NCBI GenBank assembly: GCA_934085675.1
Contig: CAKOHH010000001.1
Span: 108,562-172,561 of the forward strand
Direction: 5' to 3'
From: an uncultured Bacilli bacterium
GTDB lineage: Bacteria; Bacillota_I; Bacilli_A; RF39; UBA660
DNA: 64,000 nt
Part shown: positions 12,425-62,768 of the stretch, in pieces
How the letters are laid out: every line of letters starts with the position of its first letter
Position numbering within the stretch: the first letter of the stretch is position 1
The notes under the pieces: model-generated
The model's input: the letters and a program-made list of their open reading frames with translations, nothing else
Databases searched by the model: none
Told to the model about the DNA's origin: nothing
Program-made: the position numbers and the translations under genes

Positions 12425-13510
12425 TTAAATCATTTTTAATAAAATTTCATTCATAATATAAAATTTATCTTTAGGAATAAAGATGTAGCCATTCTCTTCT
12501 TTCAAATCTTTATTTTTTAAAAGAGGTTTAATAGGATAACAATCTTCCATATTTCTGCCAAATTTTTGTTTAAATTTTGTAAGAGAAATGCCCTCACACT
12601 TGCGAAAGCCTAACATAAGTTCATTATCCATCACATCTTTTAAAGACAATATCTCTTCTTCTTTTTGGTAAAAGCCTGCTAAATATTTGGTTAAACTTTT
12701 CGTATTAGTATAACGAATATCATCTATATAACCACTAGCACCTAGACCAAAACCATAATATTCTTCATTGTTCCAATAAGTTAAATTGTGCTTTGACTCA
12801 TAGCCATCTTTAGCAAAATTAGAAACTTCATAATGATGATAGCCCTTCTTTTCGAGCATTTTTATAATTGTTTTATACATCAAAGCATCTACATCTTCAC
12901 TAATGGGCTTTACATTTTGCTTAGAAAGCATCGTATGTGGTTCAATCATTAAACTATAGGTACTAATATGATTGGGCTCTAATTCTAATAAAAGGGTAAG
13001 ATCTTTTTTTAAAATGGAAAGATCTTCTGTTGGTAAAGCATACATTAAATCAATGTTAACATTTTCAAAACCTAAACGACGAATTAAAGCCATTTTTTCT
13101 TTGGCTTCTAAAAAAGTATGTTGTCGATTTAAAAAGGTAAGATTTGTTTCATTAAAAGATTGAATTCCTATACTTAAACGATTAACACCTTTTAGTTTTA
13201 AAAGATAAAGTATTTCTTCAGTAATATCATCTAAATTACATTCAAAAGTAAATTCAACTTGAGATTCTAAATGAAAAACTTGACAAATTTCTAATAATTT
13301 TTTGATTTGACTTAAAGATAAACAAGAAGGCGTACCACCTCCAATATAAATTGTTTTAATTTTTTCATCGAGATAGTGGTCTAAAATTTCCTCATTTAAT
13401 TTATCAAGATAAAGATCTACCCAATCTTTTTTATAATATAATTTGCAAAAATCACAATAGGAACAAATATTTTTACAAAAAGGAATATGAATATAAACGC
13501 TTTTACTCAT
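12425..13510 (-). CDS. hemW: Radical SAM heme chaperone HemW (HemN-like, oxygen-independent coproporphyrinogen III oxidase family)
   Basis: CKNICSYCDFC radical-SAM cysteine motif near the N-terminus. Adjacent to lepA, as in Bacillus. Confidence 0.8.
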   Translation of the reverse strand: MSKSVYIHIPFCKNICSYCDFCKLYYKKDWVDLYLDKLNEEILDHYLDEKIKTIYIGGGTPSCLSLSQIKKLLEICQVFHLESQVEFTFECNLDDITEEILYLLKLKGVNRLSIGIQSFNETNLTFLNRQHTFLEAKEKMALIRRLGFENVNIDLMYALPTEDLSILKKDLTLLLELEPNHISTYSLMIEPHTMLSKQNVKPISEDVDALMYKTIIKMLEKKGYHHYEVSNFAKDGYESKHNLTYWNNEEYYGFGLGASGYIDDIRYTNTKSLTKYLAGFYQKEEEILSLKDVMDNELMLGFRKCEGISLTKFKQKFGRNMEDCYPIKPLLKNKDLKEENGYIFIPKDKFYIMNEILLKMI

Positions 13511-17081: not shown

Positions 17082-18009
17082 TTCCTAATATCACTTCCTT
17101 TAAAACTTTGGCAAGTATTAAAAGTGTATTATTAACTTCACTTATCTTATTATATTGTCCTCCAAGCTCAAAAAGAAGGGCGTTTGATGAAAAATCTTGA
17201 TTGTATATTCCATTTACACCTTGTCCACCTTTTTTTAGAACACCTCTACTCAAATGAGGAATTTCTTTATTCACCATCTCACTTATTTTTTCTGCTAATG
17301 CTAAGTTTTCCCGATAATTATCATGGTCTGTACCTATTACAAATAAAATTTTGGCATAAGATTTATTTTGATAAGAAATCGTACTTGCTTCATAAGAAAT
17401 CGAGTCACGATGAATATCAAAAAAATATTTTAAAGTTTGATTTTTACTTAAAGCATCTTGCATTAAAAATTTGCTTGCTTTATAACTGGAAGCATAATTC
17501 CAACCATTTATTTTTAAAACATTTTTAATAGGCGTTGTTTCCATAATCGTTTTAATATTTAAGTTATTCAGTTCTTCCCTTAATTTATAACCTGCTAACA
17601 TAACAGTTGGAATTACATCATGATTAGAAAGACCATTACTACTATATTCTTCTCCCTGATGAGTATTATATAAATAAACAGCAGGATTAGTTTTATTTTC
17701 TAGAGGCGCAGGATCAGCCAGGTACTCTTGAATAGCCTCTGCCCCATTATAAACTTCATCAACATTTTTACTTTGACCTATCGTATAATTAAGAAGATAA
17801 TCTAAAACATTATTATGTACGGTGATTTGTGAAGATGGTTTAAACATACTTTTTAAAATAAAGTCTAAAAATTTATCCGTGTTAAACAAATGAGCAAAAT
17901 AAGATAAGAAAAAAGCAAAACTTATTACAAGAGCACTTAGATTGAGTAAAAAGAAATTTCTTTTTTTCTTCGTTTTAAATCTCTTAGCCATATTATCACC
18001 TAAAAGCAT
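17071..18009 (-). CDS. spoIIP: Stage II sporulation protein P (SpoIIP) family
   Basis: N-terminal TM; VYLYNTHQGEEYS and LLFELGGQYN motifs characteristic of SpoIIP. Confidence 0.65.
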   Translation of the reverse strand: MLLGDNMAKRFKTKKKRNFFLLNLSALVISFAFFLSYFAHLFNTDKFLDFILKSMFKPSSQITVHNNVLDYLLNYTIGQSKNVDEVYNGAEAIQEYLADPAPLENKTNPAVYLYNTHQGEEYSSNGLSNHDVIPTVMLAGYKLREELNNLNIKTIMETTPIKNVLKINGWNYASSYKASKFLMQDALSKNQTLKYFFDIHRDSISYEASTISYQNKSYAKILFVIGTDHDNYRENLALAEKISEMVNKEIPHLSRGVLKKGGQGVNGIYNQDFSSNALLFELGGQYNKISEVNNTLLILAKVLKEVILGNGK

Positions 18010-18099
18010 TATATAAAAAGATGAAGAAATATATTGTCGGATTTTAATGTTTATATAGCATAAAAAAACACTTAACTAAAAAATTAAGTGTTAATTATA

Positions 18100-18960
18100 T
18101 TAAGACGGTTGCTTCAATTTTTCGATTTCTTTTTCAGTCAAGCCTGTCACTTTAGAAATATAATTGATATCGTTTGTTTCCTTTAATAAGTTTCTGGCAA
18201 CAATATCAATTCCTTTACTCATACCGATACTGATTCCTTGACTTTTACCAATATCAATTCCTTCTTCACGCCCATAATCACGAGCCTTTTTAAACATACT
18301 TCTTTCTTCATTCATTACTTCATCGCTTAAAAGGGCATTCATATACTCATCCATTGTCATAATTGTTCTCCATTTCTGTTTTAGTTTGTCTCGTTCTTCT
18401 TCACTATTTGCTTTTAAATATCTTAAAATATCTAAAAACTCTTCATCACTTATGCCTACATTATAATTAAGTTTATCTAGTAAATCAAGACGTATGTAAT
18501 AAATTTGAATATCATCTGTTAAAGGATAGCCTTGTTCTTCTAAGAAATATCTTTGCACTAATTTATCTTGTAAAACACCTTTTTTAACATGGTCTACTAA
18601 ATTAATTTGGATAAACTTCTTCATTTTATGATATGGCATGCTTTTTTTTAGTTGACTACTATAACCACGACAAAGATAAACATTTGACTTTCTTAAGTTT
18701 TCTTCATTGAATGTTTTATAAGCTTCTAAGTTTAAAATGACATTGTCTCCTAAAAAAGCAAAAACATCGGCCCTGATATTTTTTTCTTTATAAGTTGCTT
18801 TTTTAAATGGATATTCATGACTTTTAATCTCAATTTGTTTTTCTAAGAAACCTTTAGGTAATCTTAAAACATTTTCTGAGATAACTTCAAGTGGTCGGGT
18901 GTATTCTTCATTTCCTAAGATATTTTTCACCCAGTAGTCTTCCATTAAATCAATTTTCAT
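18100..18960 (-). CDS. Rpn/YhgA-like PD-(D/E)XK recombination-promoting nuclease / putative transposase (copy 1)
   Basis: 286 aa. D...E.K nuclease motif (IRADVFAFL...ILNLEAYK). C-terminal Gly-periodic helix region EEGIDIGKSQGISIGMSKGIDIVARNLL...GLTEKEIEKL, typical of the Rpn family. A near-identical copy lies at 21866-22735. Confidence 0.5.
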   Translation of the reverse strand: MKIDLMEDYWVKNILGNEEYTRPLEVISENVLRLPKGFLEKQIEIKSHEYPFKKATYKEKNIRADVFAFLGDNVILNLEAYKTFNEENLRKSNVYLCRGYSSQLKKSMPYHKMKKFIQINLVDHVKKGVLQDKLVQRYFLEEQGYPLTDDIQIYYIRLDLLDKLNYNVGISDEEFLDILRYLKANSEEERDKLKQKWRTIMTMDEYMNALLSDEVMNEERSMFKKARDYGREEGIDIGKSQGISIGMSKGIDIVARNLLKETNDINYISKVTGLTEKEIEKLKQPS

Positions 18961-19054
18961 GATTTCTTTCTCCTTTCTAAGAAGATAAATAAATTACCTT
19001 CTACTTATATATTCAAAAAAAATCCTTGATTTCCTTTTTTTTAGTGAAAAAAAA

Positions 19055-19089
19055 TTGCAATTTCTTGCAATCTTGACATTTATTTGACA
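19055..19089 (-). promoter_or_regulatory. Direct-repeat motifs TTGCAA-N4-TTGCAA and TTGACA-N5-TTGACA in the rpn-like gene's upstream region
   Basis: Seen directly. Repeated in all three cassette copies (19055-19089, 21011-21045, 22833-22867). A8/T8/A8 homopolymers sit just next to them (19015-19054). Confidence 0.4.
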
Positions 19090-20457
19090 CTAATTAACAA
19101 TATAAGGATCTGTCATAGTGCCGGTTCCTGTAATTGTAACGCCAGACTTTAAATTAATAACCGGACGGCATGCCAGATTTCCACCTGAATATGTATCGTC
19201 AATCGCATAAAAACCAGCATTTTGAGCAGAAAAAATTTTAACCTGTGGGCTTTGAAAATAAGCATCATAATAGCCAGATGGTGTCATTGTCCAAAACTCG
19301 TTTCCAGCAACTAAATAATCATTTATATTTTTTTTTGCATTATTATATTTACCATTTACAATTCCACCAGCATGACCAGCAAACATTACTTCATCAATTG
19401 TAATTAATCCAACCGGATATGTTAAAACTTTATTACCTAAAGAAGAGGAAGAAACAGTATAATAATCACTTGCATTCTCACATACAAGTGTTGGCTTACT
19501 TGCCTCAACTCTTACATATGCTTTATAATAAGTTATCGTTTGTCCTATTCCTGTGTTTGAATCATTTGATAATGAACTGCGATCACCACAAAACCCAACA
19601 TTGATATCTAATTTTGATGCGTAACTCGAAAGTTTATCCGTATAGAACTTATCTACATTTGTTTTAATTTTTGATGATGTTCCCGTACCATGAGTTTCTC
19701 CTTCAGTATACATATAGCCTACATACATATTGTTATTAGAACTTGGATTAAATTGACTGGTGCCATATTGTCTATCTGTTGATGATTCGCCATTAGCATG
19801 GGCACTTGTACCATCATAAATCATTCTAATAGAACCATTGCTGTTTATTCTTATGATTCTCCAATAGTAACCTGCAAACTTGACATAATTGTTTTCTACT
19901 GAACCTCGATAATAATAAGTAGGCTTGCCATCATTGTCTGTTGTTTCATAAATTCCTTTTTCGTGGGATTCACATGAAGAATCATCACAGGCTGACTTTG
20001 TAAAATCTGGAGTATAACTATTAACTTCAATGTTTCCTAAAGCCGTTTTTAGTGTTTTAGCTGTTTTATTAAAATATAAAGTACATTTGGTTCTAGTATT
20101 ATCTGTTGCACTATAATTATAATAATCACCAATGAATTTCCAACCAGCATTATCCCAAGTTGGAACAACGCCATTATTACAGTTTGATTTTGTTTCATCT
20201 AAAGTGTAACCTGTATTTTGAAGAGGCATATTTCTTGATATAACCCCATCTATATAATAAGCAAAATAAATGTCTCCTGGATCTTCTACTGTGCCATTTA
20301 TGACATCAAAAGCTTTCTTTTCTTCATATAAAGCATAGGATTTATAAAATAAATAACTGCTTATGGAAAGTAAAAGAAATCCTATGACTAATATGACATA
20401 AGATTTTCTTTTATAATTATTGTCTTTATATCTTTTTAATTCCATTATCTTCACCAT
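19090..20457 (-). CDS. Secreted variable surface/exoprotein, family A1, paralog 1
   Basis: Sec signal with KSYA-LYEEK cleavage site. Conserved core YYYRGSVENNYVKFAGYYWRIIRINSNGSIRMIYDG. C-terminal tail RPVINLKSGVTITGTGTMTDPYIVN. Paralogous to 7 other ORFs in the window. Confidence 0.7.
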   Translation of the reverse strand: MVKIMELKRYKDNNYKRKSYVILVIGFLLLSISSYLFYKSYALYEEKKAFDVINGTVEDPGDIYFAYYIDGVISRNMPLQNTGYTLDETKSNCNNGVVPTWDNAGWKFIGDYYNYSATDNTRTKCTLYFNKTAKTLKTALGNIEVNSYTPDFTKSACDDSSCESHEKGIYETTDNDGKPTYYYRGSVENNYVKFAGYYWRIIRINSNGSIRMIYDGTSAHANGESSTDRQYGTSQFNPSSNNNMYVGYMYTEGETHGTGTSSKIKTNVDKFYTDKLSSYASKLDINVGFCGDRSSLSNDSNTGIGQTITYYKAYVRVEASKPTLVCENASDYYTVSSSSLGNKVLTYPVGLITIDEVMFAGHAGGIVNGKYNNAKKNINDYLVAGNEFWTMTPSGYYDAYFQSPQVKIFSAQNAGFYAIDDTYSGGNLACRPVINLKSGVTITGTGTMTDPYIVN

Positions 20458-20505
20458 AGTTTCCTATGATGATTATAACAGATACCCCCCCCCCGACTGT
20501 CAATA
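20458..20505 (-). promoter_or_regulatory. Promoter with a G10 homopolymer in the -35/-10 spacer (candidate phase-variation switch)
   Basis: Minus strand reads TTGACAgtc-G10-tatcTGtTATAAT-catcatAGGAAActATG. The poly-C run on the + strand spans 20485-20494. Confidence 0.65.
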
Positions 20506-20544
20506 GGTTTTTATTTTATTTGGTTGCTATAATTGTTTTATTTC

Positions 20545-20909
20545 TTTTTTGGAAAGCACCGAAATCATAGCAATGTAATCTAAATCATCGGTTGTTTTTA
20601 ATAGTCGTTCGATAACTGCCTTTTTCTCTGCATCAATTCCTTCTTCACGGCCATAATCATGAGCCTTTTTAAGCTGACTACTATAACCACGACAAAGATA
20701 AACATTTGACTTTCTTAAATTTTCTTCATTGAATGTTTTATAAGCTTCTAAGTTTAAAATGATATCTTTTCTTAAAAAAGCAAAAACATCGGCCCTGATA
20801 TTCTTTTCTTTATAAGTTGCTTTTTTAAATGGATATTCATGACTTATAATCTCAATTTGTTTCCTAAGATATTTTTCACCCAGTAGTCTTCCATTAAATC
20901 AATTTTCAT
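20545..20909 (-). pseudogene. Rpn-like nuclease gene remnant (two internal deletions, altered 3' end)
   Basis: Start codon and the first ~20 codons are identical to the intact copies. About 360 bp and about 80 bp are missing. Both deletion junctions sit at short direct repeats (gcctttttaa / ttctaaga). Confidence 0.7.
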
Positions 20910-21250
20910 GATTTTTGTCTCCTTCCTAAGAAGATAAATAAATTACCTTCTACTTATATATTCAAAAAAAATCAGCAATTTCCTTTTTTTTAATGAAAAA
21001 AGATTGCAATTTCTTGCAATCTTGACACTTATTTGACATCAATTAACAATATAAGGATTTATTATAATGACTATTCCAATAAAACTAAAGTCTGAGTAAA
21101 TATTGACGCAGTCCTTAAAAACTATTTAAGCCATAACCATCATAAGTTCTTAAATCATATTTTAAAGTATAGGAAAAATTAAAGTCAAATCAACTTAACT
21201 TGATGAAGTCATTATTCAATAGGATATGCCTGCTAAATAAATACTATTTT

Positions 21251-21814
21251 TCACTTTCTCAATTCTTTATTTTTTTCTTTTTCTATATTTGATTCTAATA
21301 TGCTTTCTAAATTTTTATAATAATAAATATTTTCAAGACCTACATGGACTCCTAAAGGTTCAAATTCTATTTGATTAACTAGTACTCCTCCTAAAGATTT
21401 ATGAAATTCATTTGACGGATTACCATCTAGGCAAGCAGTTATAAGTTCAGTATATCCTAGTTTTAATAATTCCTTCATACACTCAATTGCCATTTTTCTA
21501 CCTAGTCCTAAATTTTGAAATTCATCTAAAATATATTCAGAATATATTTCACCAGCATTTGGATAACCATCAAATTTAGTTTTACCAAAAGTACTAAAAC
21601 CGACAATTTTACCATCTACTAATGCCACATATGTATTATTTTTTTGCCTAATGCTATTTTCTTTCTTTTTTATTCTTTCTTCATCCTTGTATTGTAATTT
21701 ATCAATTATCTCTTTTGGTATCAAATCTTTATATGTGCTATTCCATACTTTAATATGTATATCAATTATTCTTTCAGCATCTTCTGGAATGGCTTTTCTA
21801 ATTTCTGTGTTCAT
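21251..21814 (-). CDS. GNAT-family N-acetyltransferase
   Basis: 187 aa with the acetyl-CoA-binding motif Q/RNLGLGRKM. Confidence 0.7.
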   Translation of the reverse strand: MNTEIRKAIPEDAERIIDIHIKVWNSTYKDLIPKEIIDKLQYKDEERIKKKENSIRQKNNTYVALVDGKIVGFSTFGKTKFDGYPNAGEIYSEYILDEFQNLGLGRKMAIECMKELLKLGYTELITACLDGNPSNEFHKSLGGVLVNQIEFEPLGVHVGLENIYYYKNLESILESNIEKEKNKELRK

Positions 21815-21865
21815 TTAATTACTCCTCTCATTTCTTGTTATTATAACACTTTTGTATCCGTATAT

Positions 21866-22735
21866 CTATACTAACACAATTTTCTCTAATTCTTCTTTAG
21901 AAAGTCCTGTGGCAGCAGAAATCTTTTCTAAAGAAAAGTTCATTTTTAAAAGTTCTTTGGATATTAGGATACGTTCCTCTTTTTTGCCAACATCAATTCC
22001 TTTACTCATGCCGATACTGATTCCTTTATCAATTCCTTCTTCACGACCATAATCACGAGCCTTTTTAAACATACTTCTTTCTTCATTCATTACTTCATCG
22101 CTTAAAAGGGCATTCATATACTCATCCATTGTCATAATTGTTCTCCATTTCCATTTTAGTTTGTCTCGTTCTTCTTCACTATTTGCTTTTAAATATCTTA
22201 AAATATCTAAAAACTCTTCATCACTTATGCCTACATTATAATTAAGTTTATCTAGTAAATCAAGACGTATGTAATAAATTTGAATATCATCTGTTAAAGG
22301 ATAGCCTTGTTCTTCTAAGAAATATCTTTGCACTAATTTATCTTGTAAAACACCTTTTTTTACATGGTCTACTAAATTAATTTGGATAAACTTCTTCATC
22401 TTATGATATGGCATGCTCTTTTTTAGTTGACTACTATAGCCACGACAAAGATAAACATTTGATTTTCTTAAATTTTCTTCATTAAATGTTTTATAAGCTT
22501 CTAAGTTTAAAATGATATCTTTTCTTAAAAAAGCAAAAACATCGGCCCTGATATTCTTTTCTTTATAAGTTGCTTTTTTGAATGGATATTCATGACTTTT
22601 AATCTCAATTTGTTTTTCTAAGAAACCTTTAGGTAATCTTAAAACATTTTCTGAGATAACTTCAAGTGGTCGGGTGTATTCTTCATTTCCTAAGATATTT
22701 TTCACCCAGTAGTCTTCCATTAAATCAATTTTCAT
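21866..22735 (-). CDS. Rpn/YhgA-like PD-(D/E)XK recombination-promoting nuclease (copy 2)
   Basis: More than 90% identical to 18100-18960 over most of its length. The C-terminal Gly-repeat region is diverged. Confidence 0.5.
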   Translation of the reverse strand: MKIDLMEDYWVKNILGNEEYTRPLEVISENVLRLPKGFLEKQIEIKSHEYPFKKATYKEKNIRADVFAFLRKDIILNLEAYKTFNEENLRKSNVYLCRGYSSQLKKSMPYHKMKKFIQINLVDHVKKGVLQDKLVQRYFLEEQGYPLTDDIQIYYIRLDLLDKLNYNVGISDEEFLDILRYLKANSEEERDKLKWKWRTIMTMDEYMNALLSDEVMNEERSMFKKARDYGREEGIDKGISIGMSKGIDVGKKEERILISKELLKMNFSLEKISAATGLSKEELEKIVLV

Positions 22736-22864
22736 GATTTCTTTCTCCTTTCTAAGAAGATAAATAAATTACCTTCTACTTATATATTCAAAAAAAATCC
22801 TTGATTTCCTTTTTTTTAGTGAAAAAAAATTGCAATTTCTTGCAATCTTGACATTTATTTGACA

Positions 22865-24229
22865 CTAATTAACAATATAAGGATCTGTCATAGTGCCGGT
22901 TCCTGTAATTGTAACGCCAGACTTTAAATTAATAACCGGACGGAGACCATTGTTATAAACTGTAGCTCCATCGCCAAAAGCACCTAAACCACCGACGCCG
23001 ATTACACTAGTAAACCAGCTAGTTCCGCAGAACGGATAATAACCTCCTGCTGGTGTCATTGTCCAGTAAGAAATTCCCATTATCAAATAACTATCTGCAT
23101 TTTCCTTTTGATGACTATATTCACCATCAAAGACACCACCGGCATGACCTGCATACATAGCTTCATCAGCGGTTATTAAGCCAATCGGGTAGTTTAATTT
23201 TTTATTACCGCTTGCCGCACTAGAAACCGTATAATAATCTTTTATATTTTCACAGGTAAGTGTTGGTGTACTTTCTTCTACCCTTATGTATCCTTTATTA
23301 TAAGTAGTTACCGTGCCGGTTCCGACACCACTTTGCTGAGTTAGGCTAGAACGGTCTCCACAAAAACCTGCATTCGTATCTAATTTTGAAACGTAACTTG
23401 AAAGTTTATCTGTATAGAACTTGTCCACATTTATTTTAACGGCTGAAGCTGTACTCGTGCCATAGGCTTCTCCGGATGTGTACATATAGCCGACATACAT
23501 ATTGTTATCTGATGATGTATTAAATGGACTGGTACCGTATCGTCTATCTTCAGAAGCCTCTCCGTTTTTATGAGCTACTGTCCCATCATAAAGCATTCTA
23601 ATTGAACCATTGCTGTTTATTCTTATGATTCGCCAGTAAAAGCCTGCAAACTTAACATAATTATTTTCGACAGAACCACGATAGTAATAAGTTGGCTTTC
23701 CATCATTGTCTGTTGTTTCAAAAATGCCTTTTTCATGGGATTCACATAAAGAATCATCACAGGCTGACTTTGTAAAATCTGGAGTATAACTATTCACTTC
23801 AATATTTCCTAAAGCCGTTTTTACTGTTTTTGCTGTTTTATTAAAATATAAAGTACATTTAGTTCTTGTATTTGTGGTTGCACTATAATTTTTGTAATTC
23901 ATTTTGGCTTCCCAAGAAGCATTATTCCAAGTTGGAACAACACCATTATTACAATTTGATTTTGTTTCATCTAAAGTATAACCCGTATTTTGAGCTGGCA
24001 TATTTCTTGATATAACACCATCTATATAATAAGCAAAATAGATATCTCCTGGATCTTCTACTGTTCCATTTATGACATCAAAATCTTTCTTTTCTTCATA
24101 TAAAGCATAGGATTTATAAAATAAATAACTATTTACAGAAAGTAAAAGAAATCCTATGACTAATATGACATAAGATTTTCTTTTATAATTATTGTCCTTA
24201 TATTTTTTTAATTCCATTATCTTCACCAT
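22865..24229 (-). CDS. Secreted variable surface/exoprotein, family A1, paralog 2
   Basis: N-terminal ~330 aa nearly identical to paralog 1. The C-terminal third has diverged. The C-terminal tail is the same. Confidence 0.7.
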   Translation of the reverse strand: MVKIMELKKYKDNNYKRKSYVILVIGFLLLSVNSYLFYKSYALYEEKKDFDVINGTVEDPGDIYFAYYIDGVISRNMPAQNTGYTLDETKSNCNNGVVPTWNNASWEAKMNYKNYSATTNTRTKCTLYFNKTAKTVKTALGNIEVNSYTPDFTKSACDDSLCESHEKGIFETTDNDGKPTYYYRGSVENNYVKFAGFYWRIIRINSNGSIRMLYDGTVAHKNGEASEDRRYGTSPFNTSSDNNMYVGYMYTSGEAYGTSTASAVKINVDKFYTDKLSSYVSKLDTNAGFCGDRSSLTQQSGVGTGTVTTYNKGYIRVEESTPTLTCENIKDYYTVSSAASGNKKLNYPIGLITADEAMYAGHAGGVFDGEYSHQKENADSYLIMGISYWTMTPAGGYYPFCGTSWFTSVIGVGGLGAFGDGATVYNNGLRPVINLKSGVTITGTGTMTDPYIVN

Positions 24230-24280
24230 AGTTTCCTATGATAATTATAACAGATACCCCCCCCCCCGACTGTCAAGAGG
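24230..24280 (-). promoter_or_regulatory. Promoter with a G11 homopolymer in the spacer (candidate phase-variation switch)
   Basis: Same TTGACAgtc-Gn-tatctgTTATAAT architecture. The C run on the + strand spans 24257-24267, which is 11 nt. Confidence 0.65.
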
Positions 24281-24291
24281 CTTTTGGGAGT

Positions 24292-25641
24292 TTAATTCAC
24301 TATATATGGATCTGTTTTGGTTCCTGTTCCTGTGATTGTTACATCTGAGCAAATGTTAACAACAGGTTTTATACCTACAGTAGCAGTACATGTCCAGTCA
24401 TTTATTTGACCAACACCCCCATTAAGAAAGAGAGACGTAGACCAATACCCATCACCAATGATAAAAGTTCCAGAAACTGGAGTTATAGTCCAAAAATTTG
24501 TTCCTGATGTATAAATATTTAAACTTTTAGGTTGTATATTTAAAACACCTTCAAACATTCCTCCTCCAGAGCCTGATAGCATTAACTCATCTACCGTGAT
24601 TAAGCCAATATTATACTTTAAACTTCTATTTCCAATGTTTGCTGATGAAATTGTATAATAATCATCATTCATACATGACAAATCAGGATTACTTTGAACA
24701 ACACGCTTATATCCTTCAAAAATGGTGTCATTATTATTAATTCCAGCATTATTGTTATTCGATGTTAAGATAATTCTACGATCCCCACAGAAACCGACAT
24801 TTGTATCTAATTTTGATGCGTAACTCGAAAGTTTATCCGTATAGAACTTATCTACATTTGTTTTAATTTTTGATGATGTTCCCGTACCATGAGTTTCTCC
24901 TTCAGTATACATATAGCCTACATACATATTGTTATTAGAACTTGGATTAAATTGACTGGTGCCATATTGTCTATCTGTCGATGCCTCCCCATTAGCATGA
25001 GCACTTGTCCCATCATAAATCATTCTTATTGAGCCATTACTGTTTATCCTTATGATTCGCCAATAAAAGCCTGCAAACTTAACATAATTGTTTTCTACTG
25101 AGCCACGATAGTAATAGGTTGGATTGCCATCATAGTCTGTTGTTTCAAAAATGCCTTTTTCATGGGATTCACATAAAGAATCATCACAGGCTGACTTTGT
25201 AAAATCTGGAGTATAACTATTCACTTCAATATTTCCTAAAGCCGTTTTTACTGTTTTAGCTGTTTTATTAAAATACAAAGTGCATTTGGTTCTAGTATTT
25301 GTGGTCGCACTATAATTATGATAATCACCAATAAATTTCCAACCAGCATTATCCCAAGTTGGAACAACGCCATTATTACAGTTTGATTTTGTCTCATCTA
25401 AAGTATAACCTGTATTTTGAAGAGGCATATTTCTTGATATAACGCCATCTATATAATAAGCAAAATAAATATCCCCTGGATCTTCTACGGTTCCATTTAT
25501 GACATCAAAATCTTTCTTTTCTTCATACAAGGCATAACTCGGGGATAAAACTAGATATCCTGCTACTACCCCTAATAAAAAAAATAAGAAAAAAATTAGT
25601 ATCTTCTTATAATTTATTTGTTTAAACTTTTTCAAAGACAT
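24292..25641 (-). CDS. Secreted variable surface/exoprotein, family A1, paralog 3
   Basis: Different signal peptide (MSLKKFKQINYKKILIFFLFFLLGVVAG). Same core as paralogs 1/2. Divergent C-terminal third. Tail KPVVNICSDVTITGTGTKTDPYIVN. Confidence 0.7.
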   Translation of the reverse strand: MSLKKFKQINYKKILIFFLFFLLGVVAGYLVLSPSYALYEEKKDFDVINGTVEDPGDIYFAYYIDGVISRNMPLQNTGYTLDETKSNCNNGVVPTWDNAGWKFIGDYHNYSATTNTRTKCTLYFNKTAKTVKTALGNIEVNSYTPDFTKSACDDSLCESHEKGIFETTDYDGNPTYYYRGSVENNYVKFAGFYWRIIRINSNGSIRMIYDGTSAHANGEASTDRQYGTSQFNPSSNNNMYVGYMYTEGETHGTGTSSKIKTNVDKFYTDKLSSYASKLDTNVGFCGDRRIILTSNNNNAGINNNDTIFEGYKRVVQSNPDLSCMNDDYYTISSANIGNRSLKYNIGLITVDELMLSGSGGGMFEGVLNIQPKSLNIYTSGTNFWTITPVSGTFIIGDGYWSTSLFLNGGVGQINDWTCTATVGIKPVVNICSDVTITGTGTKTDPYIVN

Positions 25642-25710
25642 AAAAAAATCACCACAGTTTCCCTATGATGATTATAACAGATACCCCCCCCCCGACTGTC
25701 AAGAGTATCT
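25642..25710 (-). promoter_or_regulatory. Promoter with a G10 homopolymer in the spacer (candidate phase-variation switch)
   Basis: TTGACAgtc-G10-tatctgTTATAAT. The C run on the + strand spans 25684-25693. Confidence 0.65.
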
Positions 25711-25727
25711 TTTAAAGCATTAAATTT

Positions 25728-26288
25728 TTACGCTCTACTTGAATATTTACCATCGCTAGTTGAGATAATAATTCTTTCGCCTTGGCTAATGAATAATGGC
25801 ACTTTAACAGTATAGCCTGTTTCAATTTTAGCATCTTTCATAGCATTGTTAGTTGTATTACCTTTAACAGCTGGTTCTGTTTCAACAACTTCGAATTCGA
25901 TTTTTTCAGGTAAAGTAACACCTAATAATTCGCCTTCATAATAATCAAGTTTGATTTCGATTCCTTCTTTTAAGAAACGTTTTTCATTTTCTAATTTACT
26001 TCCTGGAACTTCTACTTGATCATAAGTTTCTGTGTTCATGAACACATAGTTATCTCCATTAGCATATAAAAATTGCATTGGATTATGTTCCACACGAGCT
26101 CTTTCAATTTTAATATTAGTATTGTAAGAGTTTTCAACAACAGCACCTGTTCTTAAGTTCTTAGTTTTCATACGAACAAAAGCACTGCCTTTTCCAGGTT
26201 TAACATGTTGGAATTCAATAATTTGACAAAGATTACCGTCTAAAATAATTGTCATTCCATTTTTAATATCGTTGATATTAATATTCAT
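25728..26288 (-). CDS. efp: Elongation factor P
   Basis: 186 aa; KPGKG loop motif (HVKPGKGSAFVRMK). Confidence 0.9.
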   Translation of the reverse strand: MNININDIKNGMTIILDGNLCQIIEFQHVKPGKGSAFVRMKTKNLRTGAVVENSYNTNIKIERARVEHNPMQFLYANGDNYVFMNTETYDQVEVPGSKLENEKRFLKEGIEIKLDYYEGELLGVTLPEKIEFEVVETEPAVKGNTTNNAMKDAKIETGYTVKVPLFISQGERIIISTSDGKYSSRA

Positions 26289-26303
26289 AATCTTCTCTCC
26301 TTA

Positions 26304-26477
26304 CTATTTTCCAAGTTTAGTTTCTTTAAATACTGTTACTTGATGACAAGTAGGACAATATTTTTTCATTTCCATTTTATCTGGAGTATTTTTTTTGTTC
26401 TTAATTGTTGGACGAATTTGTTTTCCACAACGAGAACATTTTAATCCAAAAAATTGTCTATTTTCATTTTTTGCCAT
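26304..26477 (-). CDS. rpmG: 50S ribosomal protein L33
   Basis: 57 aa: MAKNENRQFFGLKCSRCGKQIRPTIKNKKNTPDKMEMKKYCPTCHQVTVFKETKLGK. Has the CxxC...CxxC zinc ribbon. GGAGG RBS. Too short for the ORF track. Confidence 0.75.
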   Translation of the reverse strand: MAKNENRQFFGLKCSRCGKQIRPTIKNKKNTPDKMEMKKYCPTCHQVTVFKETKLGK

Positions 26478-26589
26478 TATTTTTTACCTCCTCACATCAA
26501 AACTATATGTATTTTAGCATAGTTAGAACCTAAGTTCAAGCGAAAATAGTTTATCTAAAACTTAGGTTAAACTAATTTTTTATTTCTTT

Positions 26590-56617: not shown

Positions 56618-58597
56618 CTAATTGGTTACAATCTCGTAAGGACTAGAAGATGTTCCTATTCCTCCGCTTATTTTGGCATCTCCTTTGATATTTATAACAG
56701 GACGAACACCATAGCCGCCGGTCACCCAGTCGCTGTTAGGAGAGCCTGAGCTGCCCAAATAGAACTCACCTACCGCCGCATCCGAGATATAGAAACTCCT
56801 CGGAGACAAAGTCCAATAAGTTGACGTACTATAAGTATAAGCAGATTTATTAATATAACCATTGGCATACCCTGAAAGCATTAATTCATCGACTGTAATT
56901 AAGCCAATCGGATAAGTTAAGGCTTTATTTCCTTTAGTATTTGTACTTAAGGTAAATAAATCGTTTATTTGAACGCATTTTAAAGTTGGCTGTTTTGTAT
57001 AAAAATATCTACTATAAGGTCCATAGTTAGTATTAGACCCTGTTGTTGAATATCCATTTCCCGAATCTAGACTTCTATCATTACAGAAACCGGCATCAGC
57101 GATGACTGATTCATTGCTTGTTCCTAAAATATGGGTTTTATACCAATTATCTAATACTTTTTTGATATTGCTATCGTTTTCATTGGCATTTGTTTTTTCA
57201 TAACTTGTATTTAAAGTACTGCCAGACATGTATCCTACATAAGCTGGGTTATCTCTTTTACTATTAAAGGAAGCTGATTTTATATTTAATCCTGAACCAC
57301 TGGCATTGGCTGTTGCTCCCGCATATAAAAGTCTGACACTGCCATCACCATTGATACGAATAATTTGCCAGTAAGCATCAGCATATTTTACATAGTTGTT
57401 ATTTACTGAACCACGATAGTAATAACTTATACCATCAGCATCGGCCATTTGATAAAGTCCTTTATCTGATTTATCACTTTCTCTTTCTGTTTGGTTCAGT
57501 AAATAACCTTTTAAATTATATCTTCTCATTTTGAAAGAAGTTCCTCCTGAACCTGTTGCTGTTCCATCCGTAACACTAGCACTGGTGATTTCATAAATAT
57601 TTGCACAACCTGAGGTATTTTTCCATATTGATATAACATCAGCAGAACTTGTGCGATATCCAGCACCACAGAAATAATACTTAGTATTTCCACCATATGT
57701 TAAAGTAGTTGGATCTACTTGCTGAACATTTGTAATGGTATATGTTCCTGTCTCAGAATTAAAGGTATAACTAGAACCAATGGGAAGTAAAACGGCTGAG
57801 GCAGACAAGTTTTTAAATCTTGCATCTGTATCTTTTTGAGCAACTAAATCTGGATGAGGCATTGTTGATGATGGACTACTTAGACTTGTGGCTTTATTTT
57901 CATTCCAAATAAGAATAGGAGCAGTCCTACTAAAATCAACTGTTTGTTTAGCCGCTATTTTTTGTTTAGATATTTCAGGCGTTGTTTGATATTCGTTAGC
58001 AAGAATAACGTCCGCTAGGGTTGTATAGCCTTGCTCTACTGGGCTATAGTTACTTACTGATGCTGTTACAACTACTTTTGATTTAAAGTTTTTGTTCATA
58101 GCGTCTGTATCTTCTGGCGTAACATCTTCACTCATCCATAATCTTAAGTTATAATCAACACTGTCACCTGAACCTAAAGAACCTTTGGCAAGTATTTTTG
58201 ATGTTACAGAACCATTTATTGTTGTTTTAGCATCTTCTAATTCACTTAGTTTAATAACGCTTTCATTATTTATCATAGAACTAATATATTTTATTGGTAA
58301 CGTATTGTTTTCTAATATTTCTAAATTAACAGTGTAACTGGCAAATAAATCACAAGTATTTGTTATCGTAAAACTATAAGGCGTTAACTTTTTGCCTTCT
58401 TCATTTGTTATAGGGTAAGCATTAACTAAATTAATATTATTTTTTTCATTTGTTAACGATAAACTAAAACAACTTCCTGCTATTTTATTAAAACCTTTTT
58501 GAGACAAATTTAAAGTCCATATAGCATAAGAAATACCAATTATACTTAATATTAGAACAATACTTATCACTATTATTAATACTTTTTTCTTTTTCAT
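56618..58597 (-). CDS. Secreted variable surface/exoprotein, family A2, paralog 1
   Basis: Has the N-module of family B (KLTPYSFTITNTCDLFASYTVNLEIL) and the core of family A (YYYRGSVNNNYVKYADAYWQIIRINGDGSVRLLYAG). Tail RPVINIKGDAKISGGIGTSSSPYEIVTN. Confidence 0.7.
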   Translation of the reverse strand: MKKKKVLIIVISIVLILSIIGISYAIWTLNLSQKGFNKIAGSCFSLSLTNEKNNINLVNAYPITNEEGKKLTPYSFTITNTCDLFASYTVNLEILENNTLPIKYISSMINNESVIKLSELEDAKTTINGSVTSKILAKGSLGSGDSVDYNLRLWMSEDVTPEDTDAMNKNFKSKVVVTASVSNYSPVEQGYTTLADVILANEYQTTPEISKQKIAAKQTVDFSRTAPILIWNENKATSLSSPSSTMPHPDLVAQKDTDARFKNLSASAVLLPIGSSYTFNSETGTYTITNVQQVDPTTLTYGGNTKYYFCGAGYRTSSADVISIWKNTSGCANIYEITSASVTDGTATGSGGTSFKMRRYNLKGYLLNQTERESDKSDKGLYQMADADGISYYYRGSVNNNYVKYADAYWQIIRINGDGSVRLLYAGATANASGSGLNIKSASFNSKRDNPAYVGYMSGSTLNTSYEKTNANENDSNIKKVLDNWYKTHILGTSNESVIADAGFCNDRSLDSGNGYSTTGSNTNYGPYSRYFYTKQPTLKCVQINDLFTLSTNTKGNKALTYPIGLITVDELMLSGYANGYINKSAYTYSTSTYWTLSPRSFYISDAAVGEFYLGSSGSPNSDWVTGGYGVRPVINIKGDAKISGGIGTSSSPYEIVTN

Positions 58598-58630
58598 TTT
58601 TACTATCCTTTCATCTAATAAAAAATAAAA

Positions 58631-60646
58631 CTAATTGGTTACAATCTCATAAGGACTAGAAGATGTTCCTATTCCTCCACTTATTTTGGCATCTCCTTTG
58701 ATATTTATAACAGGACGAACACCACAGCCACCGTCCACCCAGCCATTGAAGTAAGGATAGCCTGCACTATTCAAACTGAACTCTCGTACCACTACATTAA
58801 AATAACTTGGAGATATAGTCCAATAGTTAGACGTACTATAAGTATAAGTTGACTTGTTAATATAACCATCTGCATAGCCTGAAAGCATTAATTCATCGAC
58901 TGTAATTAAGCCAATCGAATAAGTTAAGGCTTTATTTCCTTTAGTACTTGCCCTTAAGGTAAATAAATCATTTGTTTGAGAGCATTTTAAAGTTGGCTGT
59001 TTTGTTTGAAAATATCTTCTCCGAGGTCCATAGATGATGCTAGATTCTGTTGTAGAATAACCATTTCCAAAAGATAAACTTCTATCGTTACAGAAACCAG
59101 CATCAGCGATGACTGATTCGTTATTTGTGCCGAAAATATTGGTTTTATACCAATTATCTAATTCTTTTTTGATATTACTGTCGTTTTCATTGGCTGTTGT
59201 TTTTTCGTAACTTGTATTTAAAGTACTACCATACATGTATCCTACATAGGCTGGGTTATCTCTTTTACTATTAAAAGCAGCTGATTTTATATTTAAACCT
59301 GAACCACTTGCATTACCCGTTGTTCCCGCATATAAAAGTCTGACACTGCCATCACCATTCATACGCATAATACGCCAATAAGCACCTGCATATTTCACAT
59401 AATTGTTGCTTACCGAACCACGGTAGTAATAACTTATGCCATCATCATCTGCCATTTGATAAAGTCCTTTATCCGACTTGTCACTTTCTCTTTCTGTTTG
59501 ACTCATGCTGTATGCTTTTAAATTATATTTTCTGGTTTTGAAAGAAGTTCCACCTGAACCTGTGGCTGTTCCATCAGTATAGGTAGTACTGGTTATTTCA
59601 TAAATATTTGAACAGTCTGATGTAGTTTTATAAACACCAATAACATCATCTGAACTGATATTATAGCCTGAACTGCAGAAATAATACTTAGTATTCCCTC
59701 CATATGTTAAAGTGGTAGGATCTAATTGTTGCACATTTGTTATATCATATTTTCCTGTTTCAGGATTAAAAGTATAACTAGAACCGATAGGAAGTAAAAC
59801 TGATTCAGAAGTCAAGTTTTTAAACCTCGGATCTGTATCTTTTAAAGCTACTAAATCTGGATGAGGCATTATTACTGACTTACTACTTAAGTTAGAATCT
59901 TTGCTTTCGCTCCATATTAAAATTGGAGCTGTCTTACTAAAATCAACTGCTTGTTTGGCCGCTATTTTTTGCTTAGATATTTCGGGTGTTGTTTGATATT
60001 CGTTTGCTAGTATGGCATCTGCTAAGGTTGTATAGCCTTGTTCTGATGGGATGTAAGTACTTCTTTGGGCTCCTATGGTTACTTTTGATAAAAAGGTGGT
60101 ATTCATAGAGTCTGTATCATTTATGGTGACATCTTCATCCATCCATAGTCTAATGTTATAATCAGTACTGTCACCGGAACCAAGGGTTCCTTTAAAAAGA
60201 ACTTTGGAAGAAGAAGCATTATCTAAAGTTGTTTGGGTATCTTCTAAATCTTTTAATTTAGCGATGGCTTCATTATTTACCATTGCTTTAATATATTTAT
60301 AAGGCATCGTAGAATCATTTAAAATTTCTAGGTTAACTGTGTAACTTAAAAATAAATCACAAGTATTTGTTATCGTAAAACTATATGGTGTTAGTTTTTT
60401 TCCTTCGGCATCAGATATGGGATAAGCCTTGGTAAGATTAATATCATTTTTTTCATTAGTTAATGATAAATTCAAACAACTTGTTACAAGTTTTGAAGGA
60501 TTATGACTACTAAAAGTTAAAAGCCAATAAGCATAGGATACACCTATAACTGTCATCATTACTAATAGTATTACAATAATTAAAATAATCTTTTTCTTTT
60601 TGCTCATCTTCTTATACTCCCTTAAGACTAGTATGTAACATAACAT
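58631..60646 (-). CDS. Secreted variable surface/exoprotein, family A2, paralog 2
   Basis: About 75% identical to 56618-58597, with an identical C-terminal tail. The intergenic junction is duplicated. Confidence 0.7.
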   Translation of the reverse strand: MLCYILVLREYKKMSKKKKIILIIVILLVMMTVIGVSYAYWLLTFSSHNPSKLVTSCLNLSLTNEKNDINLTKAYPISDAEGKKLTPYSFTITNTCDLFLSYTVNLEILNDSTMPYKYIKAMVNNEAIAKLKDLEDTQTTLDNASSSKVLFKGTLGSGDSTDYNIRLWMDEDVTINDTDSMNTTFLSKVTIGAQRSTYIPSEQGYTTLADAILANEYQTTPEISKQKIAAKQAVDFSKTAPILIWSESKDSNLSSKSVIMPHPDLVALKDTDPRFKNLTSESVLLPIGSSYTFNPETGKYDITNVQQLDPTTLTYGGNTKYYFCSSGYNISSDDVIGVYKTTSDCSNIYEITSTTYTDGTATGSGGTSFKTRKYNLKAYSMSQTERESDKSDKGLYQMADDDGISYYYRGSVSNNYVKYAGAYWRIMRMNGDGSVRLLYAGTTGNASGSGLNIKSAAFNSKRDNPAYVGYMYGSTLNTSYEKTTANENDSNIKKELDNWYKTNIFGTNNESVIADAGFCNDRSLSFGNGYSTTESSIIYGPRRRYFQTKQPTLKCSQTNDLFTLRASTKGNKALTYSIGLITVDELMLSGYADGYINKSTYTYSTSNYWTISPSYFNVVVREFSLNSAGYPYFNGWVDGGCGVRPVINIKGDAKISGGIGTSSSPYEIVTN

Positions 60647-60781
60647 GTATTTTAAACTACCTTTATTATTACTTTATAAGTATAGCACTTTATCGCACAT
60701 TTTAGCAACTTGTTTTCAAATAAAAAAACGAGTAAGTCTCGCTTTTTTAGAATAAATATTTTATGTTGTATCTTTAAAAAA

Positions 60782-62768
60782 TTAGTTTGTTACAATCTCA
60801 AATGGACTAGAAGATGTTCCTATTCCGCCACTTATTTTAGCATCTCCTTTGATATTTATAACAGGACGAATACCATTGTCGTCGGTCACCAAGCGGTCGC
60901 TAGGATAGCCTGAGCTGCTCAAAGCGAACCCACTCGCCTCCGTATTCGAGCCACGGAACTTCCTCGGAGACAGAGTCCAATAAGACCTTGTACTGTATGT
61001 ATAAGCAGATTTATTAATATAACCATCAGCATATCCTGAAAGCATTAGTTCATCGACAGTAATTAGGCCAATCGGATAAGTTAAGGCTTTATTTCCTTTA
61101 GTACTTGTGCTTAAGGTAAATAAATCGTTTGTTTGAGCACACTTTAAAGTTGGTTGTTTAGTTTCATAATATCTATAATGTGACCCGTAGTATGTAGAAG
61201 AACCTGTTGTAGAATATCCATTTCCTGAAGACAAACTTCTATCATTACAGAAACCGGCATCAGCGATGACTGATTCATTGCTTGTTTCTAAAATATTGGT
61301 TTTATACCAATTGTCTAATTCTTTTTTGATATTGCTGTTGTTTTCATTGGCTGTTGTTTTTTCATAACTTGTATTCAAGGTACTACCATACATATAACCG
61401 TTGTAGGCTGGATTATCTTCTTTAACATTAAAGGTTTCCGATTTTATTCTTAATCCTGAACCACTGGCATTGGCTGTTGTTCCCGCATATAGAAGTCTGA
61501 CACTGCCATCACCATTGATACGAATAATTCGCCAGTAAGCACCAGCATATTTTACATAGTTGTTATTCACTGAACCACGATAGTAATAACTTATACCATC
61601 ATCATCTTCACTTTTGTATAGTCCTTTATCCGATTTGTCGCTTTCTCTTTCTGACTGAGTCATACGATAACCTTTTAAATTATATGTTCTGGTTTTGAAA
61701 GAAGTTCCGCCTGAACCAGTTGCTGTTCCATCTTCAAAACTGGCACTGGTGATTTCGTAAATACTTGAACATCCTGAGGTATCTCCCCATATAGATATAA
61801 CATCAGCAGAACTTGTATTATATCCCGCACTACAGAAATAATACTTCGTAGTCCCACCATATGTTAAAGTGGTTGGATCTACTTGTTGAACATTTGTGAT
61901 ATCATATTTTCCTGTTTCAGAATTAAAAGTATAACTAGAGCCAATTGGCAGTAAAGGTGATTCAGCATTTAACTTTTCAAATCTCGCATCTGTATCTTTT
62001 AAGGCAACTAAATCGGGATGAGGCATCGTTGCAGTTTTAGTACCTAGGTTAGTGTCTTTATATTCACTCCATGTTAAAATTGGAGCCGATTTACTAAAAT
62101 CTACGGTTTGTTTGGTGGCGATTTTTTGTTTAGATATTTCAGGAGTTGTTTGATATTCGTTGGCTAGTATGGCATCGGCAATGGTTGTATAGCCTTGTTC
62201 TACTGGACTATAATTACTTCTTTGGGCTCCTATGGTTACCTTAGATAAAAAGGTGGTATTCATAGAGTCTGTATCATTTACGGTGATATCTTCATCCATC
62301 CATAGTCTAATGTTGTAATCAGTACTGTCGCCTGAACCAAGAGTTCCTTTAAAAAGAACTTTGGAAGAAGAGGCATTATCTAAAGTTGTTGGGGTATCTT
62401 CTAAATCTTTTAATTTAGTAATGGCTTCATTATTTACCATAGACTTAATATATTTATAAGGCATCGTGGAATCATTTAAAATTTCTAGGTTAACTGTATA
62501 ACTTAAAAATAAATCACAAGTATTTGTTATTGTAAAACTATAGGGAGTTAACTTTTTTTCCTTCTTCATCAGATATAGGATAGGCTTTGGTAAGATTAAT
62601 ATCATTTTTTTCATTTGTTAATGATAAACTCAAACAACTTGTGACAAGTTTTGAGGGATTATGACTACTAAAAGTTAAAAGCCAATAAGCATAAGAAACA
62701 CCTATAGCCAACGACATCATTATTAATAGTATTATAATAATTAAAATAATCTTTGTCTTTTTGTGCAT
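60782..62768 (-). pseudogene. Family A2 paralog 3, frameshifted (ORFs 62538-62768 and 60782-62614)
   Basis: The reading frame is broken at an A7 run (plus-strand T run 62555-62561). The intact paralogs have A6 plus G at this position (gga aaa aag tta ac). The upstream region is homologous to 60647-60781. Confidence 0.65.

Follow-up and report, generated by a model that had tools for sequence, protein, structure and literature searches.

In gut commensals, the invertible promoters of Bacteroides are the main known source of heritable on/off variation, and switches based on repeat tracts are known mostly from pathogens, including Neisseria, Campylobacter, Treponema and the mycoplasmas. In the vlp family of the mycoplasmas, each paralog carries a near-identical cassette of promoter, leader and N-terminus. 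Experimental precedents for switching through a promoter tract exist for tp0126, porA and tprE/G/J (PMC7864442) and for vlp, maa2 and vmm (PMC2268961). Expression of porA and tp0126 depends on the length of a poly-G tract (summarised in PMC7864442). In the tpr genes of Treponema pallidum, tracts of eight G's or fewer are permissive and those of 9–10 predominate (PMC7864442). The promoter-adjacent homopolymer of the mycoplasma vpma genes was found experimentally to have no switching role (PMC2268961).

The window analysed here is a 64 kb stretch of DNA from an uncultured gut bacterium of the Bacilli. On its minus strand, at 24276..24244 and ahead of the gene referred to as paralog 2, a cassette with a poly-G spacer can be read directly. 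A -35-like hexamer, TTGACA (24271..24276), is followed by GTC (24268-24270), a run of 11 G's (G11, a C run on the plus strand at 24257..24267), the fixed spacer part TATCTGT (24250..24256) and the -10 hexamer TATAAT (24244..24249), which lies 21 bp from TTGACA. The G11 run is the hypermutable element, as comparisons of tracts between samples indicate. The TG at 24252-24251 makes the -10 an extended one (TGnTATAAT), a feature limited to the lineage of the window. An A-rich stretch upstream of TTGACA is part of the promoter layout, and 14 nt lie between TATAAT and the first ATG (24229). Copies with G10 tracts, identified by pattern match on the same strand, are positioned ahead of paralog 1 (25671..25702, C run 25684-25693) and paralog 3 (20472..20503, C run 20485-20494). 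This layout and the G11 tract at paralog 2 had been described in an earlier note on this DNA and are matched in the sequence. The note's statement that the copies differ only in tract length holds for the core from the -35 to the -10, but a few positions just downstream also differ.

The pattern TTGACAGTC-Gn-TATCTGTTATAAT has three matches in the 64 kb window and none in 100 shuffles. These three tracts are the only G/C runs of 7 nt or more in the window, which has a GC content of 30.4%, and the chance expectation for a G/C run of at least 10 nt is estimated at about 1e-3 per window. All three copies stand ahead of a gene, and in each a recognisable -35 and -10 hexamer enclose a homopolymer longer than about 8 nt. 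Cassettes also precede genes that have no paralog upstream, being found after efp (25702), after an Rpn pseudogene (20503) and, at a related locus (L049), after FtsX.

The genes concerned are all on the minus strand and encode proteins of 449 aa (paralog 1, 24292..25641), 454 aa (paralog 2, 22865..24229) and 455 aa (paralog 3, 19090..20457). The first ATG of paralog 2 is at 24229-24227, where the earlier note had placed the start of the gene. The second ATG, at 24217 (MELKKYK...), is probably the true start, as it is preceded by a GGTGA Shine-Dalgarno sequence and corresponds to the start of paralog 1 and of distant relatives; the annotated start would then have been placed 12 nt too early. 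In paralog 1 the position of the first ATG is taken by a GTG that is out of frame, and the gene starts after GGTGA-N7. In relatives that lack poly-G the equivalent start, MKLEKYK or MKLERFK, comes after (A)GGTG(A).

Scans of the three paralogs, halves included, against Pfam and NCBIfam at E-values up to 10 gave no match, nor did PDB sequence searches with single sequences and with profiles. Homologs were found in 6567 of 8000 candidates scored; exact and near ones are abundant in human-gut metagenomes, and the source of one is named Candidatus Ventrenecus sp. The family comprises 5544 representatives at 50% clustering, and its C-terminal module of ~290 aa is also found repeated within giant proteins. 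With a shallow alignment (72–100% identity) AlphaFold reached a pLDDT of 38, and the model became confident only with representatives of 35–60% identity added, this diverse alignment giving a pLDDT of 87 and a pTM of 0.82. The model has an N-terminal helix (residues 15–40), a beta-rich part and, at the C-terminus, a globular module. The N-terminus, MELKKYKDNNYKRKSYVILVIGFLLLSVNSYLFYKSYALYEE, is predicted to form that single helix and contains no cysteine, so that there is no lipobox. The paralogs are N-terminally membrane-anchored proteins with a C-type-lectin-like fold.

A second cluster in the window (56618-62614, minus strand) encodes three larger proteins of 659, 671 and 610 aa that contain the same ~290 aa lectin-like module, with 35–39% identity to paralog 2, no Pfam match and no poly-G promoter. 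Rpn/PDDEXK_2 'recombination-promoting nuclease' genes are located among the paralogs at 18100-18960 and 21866-22735, with a degraded copy at ~20540-20910, and a PDDEXK_2 gene also sits among paralogs at a related locus (L069). A stretch of 245 nt, made up of a paralog 3' end and the start of an Rpn gene, is 100% identical at 18911-19155 and 22686-22930. This identity suggests a recent duplication or gene conversion.

To extend the comparison, cassettes were collected by pattern scans of genome and metagenome collections and from contigs encoding identical homologous proteins. In 33 distinct cassettes, conservation starts at TTGACA and continues through the -10, the leader and the N-terminal codons; upstream of this, apart from the A-rich stretch, the flanks are unrelated. 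Each paralog has an independent cassette of its own, with promoter, leader, N-terminus and tract, both in the three window copies and in head-to-tail arrays of at least 10 paralogs (L054-L058), where each cassette begins ~12 nt past the preceding stop codon. This is the same layout as at the junction of paralog 1 and paralog 2 in the window. The same family is found elsewhere in operon-like arrays of 5–6 genes with 12-nt gaps (L024-L043, L063-L068), which have no G run of 6 or more, a single ordinary promoter and a divergent Xre-type HTH gene. This represents a different regulatory solution for the same genes. Relatives with 40–45% identity (L075, L076) have plain promoters and no poly-G. The poly-G cassette is therefore a lineage-specific regulatory device, and these relatives and the operon-type lineage, lacking the tract, are uninformative on the spacing rule.

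A relative with 60% identity (L074:90-122) has the arrangement cTTGAC-G9-TAATTTAGAC-TATAAT (N10), with a fixed spacer sequence different from that of the window and a spacer of 18 bp if the -35 is taken as TTGACG. On that assignment, a poly-G spacer promoter can fall in the canonical range. The same cassette as in the window was also seen, with G10 and G9, before a different relative of 514 aa with a start ~170 nt downstream (L014:2483-4227 and L020:13613-13643), and it is therefore not tied to one type of paralog. The human-gut Bacilli lineage that bears the cassettes is seen in the Hadza and in other cohorts.

The length of the tract is unstable at individual sites. In 80 tracts from other, independent metagenomes there are 11 of G9, 58 of G10, 9 of G11 and one each of G12 and G13; only one further copy is interrupted (GGCGGGGGG, L016). 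Sites were regarded as orthologous where the site was the same, the protein identical and the flanks of 25 nt and 53 nt identical. By this definition, 8 of 11 orthologous sites vary between samples, from G9 to G13 with a mode of G10. One locus (P0058) has G10 in three samples and G9 in two, another (P0017) has G10 and G11 in two samples each, and a third has G13, G10 and G11. A tandem array varies in tract length at 5 of 8 positions between samples, and in the arrays of eight promoters the one or two that are G9 differ by strain group. The control was a set of 104 A/T runs at these loci; not one differs in length, although at 7–9 nt they are shorter than the G tracts. The earlier note had argued for slippage from the differences between paralogous promoters. 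This is now supported more directly by single orthologous promoters that, with identical flanks and protein, occur in several lengths among samples, and tract length is accordingly not fixed in all strains.

G10 is the modal length both in cassettes with the TG of the extended -10 and in those without, including the L044 and L054 lineages, which lack the TG. The minority allele differs between the two groups, being G11 in TG cassettes (9 of G11 against 1 of G9) and G9 in non-TG cassettes (10 against no G11).

Since tract length differs between otherwise identical strains, a mutation-driven expression switch is probable. It is fairly likely that the G11 run is a hypermutable homopolymer in the spacer of a sigma-A-type promoter, and that slippage in it varies the transcription of paralog 2. 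The preferred reading, by analogy with porA, tp0126 and vlp, is slipped-strand variation in the phase or the level of transcription. The putative promoter would consist of the A-rich upstream stretch, TTGACA, the spacer with G11 and TGnTATAAT, with transcription starting at ~24237, and would drive a single lectin-like paralog. Replication slippage would insert or delete single G's in the tract, and the change in the distance and rotational phase between the -35 and the -10 would alter the transcription of that paralog alone. The outcome would be heritable and reversible variation, copy by copy.

The geometry of the spacer bears on which length would be ON. The distance from TTGACA to TATAAT is 10+n bp, giving 20 bp at G10 and 21 bp at G11. 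Among the 80 alleles it is 19–21 bp in 78, 22–23 bp in two and 16–18 bp in none. Upstream of other genes in this lineage, the spacings of promoter-like sites have a sharp peak at 17 bp, with 21 sites against 0–6 at every other spacing from 13 to 24; this peak comes from upstream-of-gene regions, a genome-wide count of -35/-10 spacings being uninformative in AT-rich DNA. A scan for consensus promoters with spacers of 16–18 bp did not call the poly-G cassettes of the window. The simple picture of a length change that toggles a good promoter on and off is therefore a poor fit, as all 80 alleles have spacers of 19–23 bp against the organism's peak at 17 bp and none moves into the 16–18 bp range. 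It follows that no allele of predicted full ON is seen among the 80.

Judged by the promoters of this organism, the 21 bp spacer at G11 probably represents a low or off state for paralog 2. If the canonical 17 bp rule applies by analogy, shorter tracts should be stronger, with G7 optimal and G11 the weakest of the three window copies. TGnTATAAT could provide basal transcription independent of the -35 in the lineage of the window, and at G11 at most this basal level would be expected. Two forms of the model may be envisaged by analogy. The majority alleles may be low or off and rarer short alleles on, as in the tpr genes of T. pallidum, or the promoter may be factor-dependent and active near 20 bp, as has been proposed for the fim genes of Bordetella. 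The narrow G9–G11 distribution could also reflect a mutational equilibrium instead of selection on expression.

The second of these forms, taken as an explanation in its own right, would make the locus an activator-dependent switch in which TTGACAGTC is, or overlaps, the site of a factor (or is shared by sigma region 4 and a factor) and is active only at ~20 bp from the -10. The ON length would then be G10 or one close to it, and slippage would still switch the gene, with a geometry unlike that of porA. Different lineages share the modal spacer of 20 bp, with no 16–18 bp allele, and non-TG lineages keep the same spacing without an extended -10, both of which would suit such a requirement. The 9-nt TTGACAGTC is identical in every cassette (80 of 80), as the searches required it to be, so that its invariance is not an independent test. 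There is also a precedent in fim, where the promoters are proposed to stay silent unless more than 22 bases lie between the activator site and the -10 (PMC1891110). Dependence on an activator is nevertheless unlikely: no gene linked to the loci is a candidate for the regulator, the upstream sequence has no conserved direct or inverted repeat of a regulator type, TTGACA is a perfect sigma-A -35, and the L074 relative has a canonical 18 bp spacer.

A tract that is hypermutable and has no regulatory effect is unlikely, although the promoter geometry gives it some ground. On this explanation the -10, or extended -10, would drive transcription at any length and the polymorphism would be neutral. 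TGnTATAAT is present in the lineage of the window, all alleles are outside the range in which a -35 would be used, and the T-tract in the vpma promoter of M. agalactiae has been shown to play no role (PMC2268961). A neutral tract would be expected to decay or to drift widely in length. Instead, the runs are uninterrupted from G9 to G13 at ~80 sites in a genome of 30% GC, with the single interrupted copy at L016, which argues for selection. In addition, TTGACA is perfect in every cassette retrieved, and in the L044 and L054 lineages, without the TG, the -35 should matter.

Errors of short-read sequencing or assembly at a tract of fixed length would account for the same variation, but this is very improbable. 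All of the tract lengths come from short-read assemblies, several contigs have coverage of only 3–9x, and Illumina chemistry is known to be error-prone on poly-G. Breaks in contigs are frequent at the cassette (L001, L004, L019, L052, L059), but they are expected from a repeat in multiple copies and were for the same reason dropped as a sign of heterogeneity in the tract. Identical variants recur in independent samples put together with different assembly software (L047 and L048, L050 and L053, L054 and L055, L056 and L057), which argues against random error. The data come from different studies and sequencing years, and no A/T run in the same contigs varies.

The proteins downstream of the cassettes are connected with a diversity-generating retroelement (DGR). 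At a related locus (L044, 11512-14747), bAvd and a reverse transcriptase (RVT_1) come after three paralogs. The TR at this locus (~12972-13072, 101 nt) was compared with the VR in the C-terminal region of the adjacent paralog (12687-12787), and 22 of 22 mismatches are at TR adenines. Judged from these sequences, the adenine-only mismatches are the signature of a DGR. The variable columns across the paralog family are the same positions as these mismatches, and the VR is carried on the C-type-lectin-like fold. In the window, only paralog 2 has at its C-terminus (22925-23124) a homologous VR-like stretch, PFCGTSWF...NNGLRPV. The DGR at L044 and the VR-like stretch in paralog 2 point to anchored or secreted lectin-like binding proteins of the DGR-diversified type. 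Limited searches of the literature on DGR targets with poly-G or other homopolymer promoters, and on this organism, found nothing specific.

That the tract is the homing part of such an element (a GC-rich IMH-like sequence after a VR), or a site of recombination or inversion, and not a promoter, is scarcely credible: a DGR does target a paralog at L044, Rpn/PDDEXK_2 nuclease-like genes are interleaved with the paralogs and in the arrays the tract lies ~80 nt downstream of the VR-like region of the preceding gene, but cassettes also follow unrelated genes (efp, the Rpn pseudogene and FtsX in L049), at L044 no poly-G separates the proven VR from the TR that comes directly after it, and there are no inverted repeats around the promoters and no reverse transcriptase or Avd in the window. 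An invertible promoter was likewise rejected because inverted repeats are missing around the promoters, a search of 17500-26500 of the window having yielded no pair of at least 30 nt.

The TAA of paralog 1 is at 24294-24292 and is followed by exactly 15 nt before TTGACA, the distance given in the earlier note. A terminator scan of this gap found no terminator-like site. The short gap and the missing terminator make read-through from paralog 1 into paralog 2 plausible, as the note had proposed. A terminator formed by a hairpin between a C-rich flank and the G tract was considered and rejected, the C-rich flank not being conserved among cassettes.

A leader hairpin is predicted by folding at 24213..24254 on the minus strand. 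It could form only in RNA that begins upstream of the -10, and in the predicted fold the -10 and the downstream segment pair with the GGTGA Shine-Dalgarno sequence and both AUGs. For a 111-nt stretch of read-through RNA the fold has -32 kcal/mol (z = -4.5), and the value for RNA from the putative +1 at ~24237, which is unstructured, is -0.7 kcal/mol. All 23 distinct leaders keep the inner stem at least, and the L074 leader, which has a different sequence, is predicted to follow the same hairpin logic. In counts of pairs, 85% of cells are paired, against 29–59% for slid partners. Covariation in the hairpin, when tested, did not exceed that of shuffles, and the hairpin is accordingly treated here as hypothetical. 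If formed, it may insulate translation from read-through and so preserve copy-by-copy control. Equivalents of the hairpin are located at 20441-20482 and ~25647-25673. The latter, in the leader of paralog 1 (25647-25673), has a T7 run after it, and the terminator scan picked it out as resembling a terminator; it could be an attenuator before paralog 1.

These features can be combined into a tentative and rather doubtful picture of two-layer surface variation, with arrays of up to at least 10 lectin-like proteins of the DGR type, each gated by a poly-G tract at ~20 bp and insulated by a leader hairpin. In this picture the ~20 bp spacing would depend on some further factor or on a geometry peculiar to the G tract. 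In read-through RNA the hairpin would mask the ribosome-binding site, and only a gene's own promoter would then give a translatable message. Such a system, if real, would add a new form to homopolymer switching, and no combinatorial system of this kind would have been described before in a gut Firmicute.

An uncultured lineage of human-gut Bacilli appears to place poly-G tracts in the promoters of a large lectin-like family of surface proteins, and some members of this family are also hypermutated by a retroelement. If tract length controls expression, strains would be able to vary the binding proteins that they display without gene loss, which would be relevant to interactions with phage, IgA and host glycans. 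The poly-G tracts would double as strain-level markers in metagenomes, and the consistently too-long spacer presents a concrete puzzle in promoter geometry.

Among known systems, the fim2, fim3 and fimX promoters of Bordetella pertussis resemble the cassettes in having a G/C homopolymer in the promoters of paralogous surface-structure genes and a long distance from the upstream site to the -10 (PMC1891110). They differ in that fim requires BvgA, whereas here the upstream position is occupied by a perfect sigma-70-type -35; at the cassettes no regulator or repeat evidence for a fim-type activator was found, with TTGACAGTC invariant and a modal spacing of 20 bp. The variable proteins of DGRs (TvpA, Mtd, TaqVP and CTLD proteins of the Legionella Lcl type) share the C-type-lectin fold. 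A DGR target with VR, nearby TR, adenine-only mismatches, reverse transcriptase and Avd is seen at L044, whereas the window itself, when searched, has no reverse transcriptase, Avd or TR.

The vlp genes of Mycoplasma hyorhinis, and likewise maa2 and vmm, are similar in being paralogs in a cluster with a spacer repeat for each gene, such that combinatorial expression is possible (PMC2268961), and their host belongs, as does the host here, to the Bacilli/Mollicutes branch. The vlp tract is poly-A or (TA)n, whereas here it is poly-G; the vlp products are lipoproteins, whereas the paralogs have no lipobox cysteine; and the vlp ON state has canonical spacing, whereas the alleles here have 19–23 bp. 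The closest likeness in the tract itself is to porA of Neisseria meningitidis and tp0126 of Treponema pallidum, where a run of ~9–11 G's also lies in the -35/-10 spacer of a surface-protein gene and changes in single-base steps. The ON allele of those promoters has a 17 bp spacer, whereas alleles here have 19–23 bp and none 16–18 bp. Unlike their hosts, the host here is a Gram-positive-type gut commensal known from metagenomes alone, and the target is a family of CTLD proteins instead of a porin. The poly-G switch is therefore probably a mechanism of a known type in a new host, an uncultured member of the gut Bacilli, and acting on a new gene family, the CTLD proteins of the DGR type.
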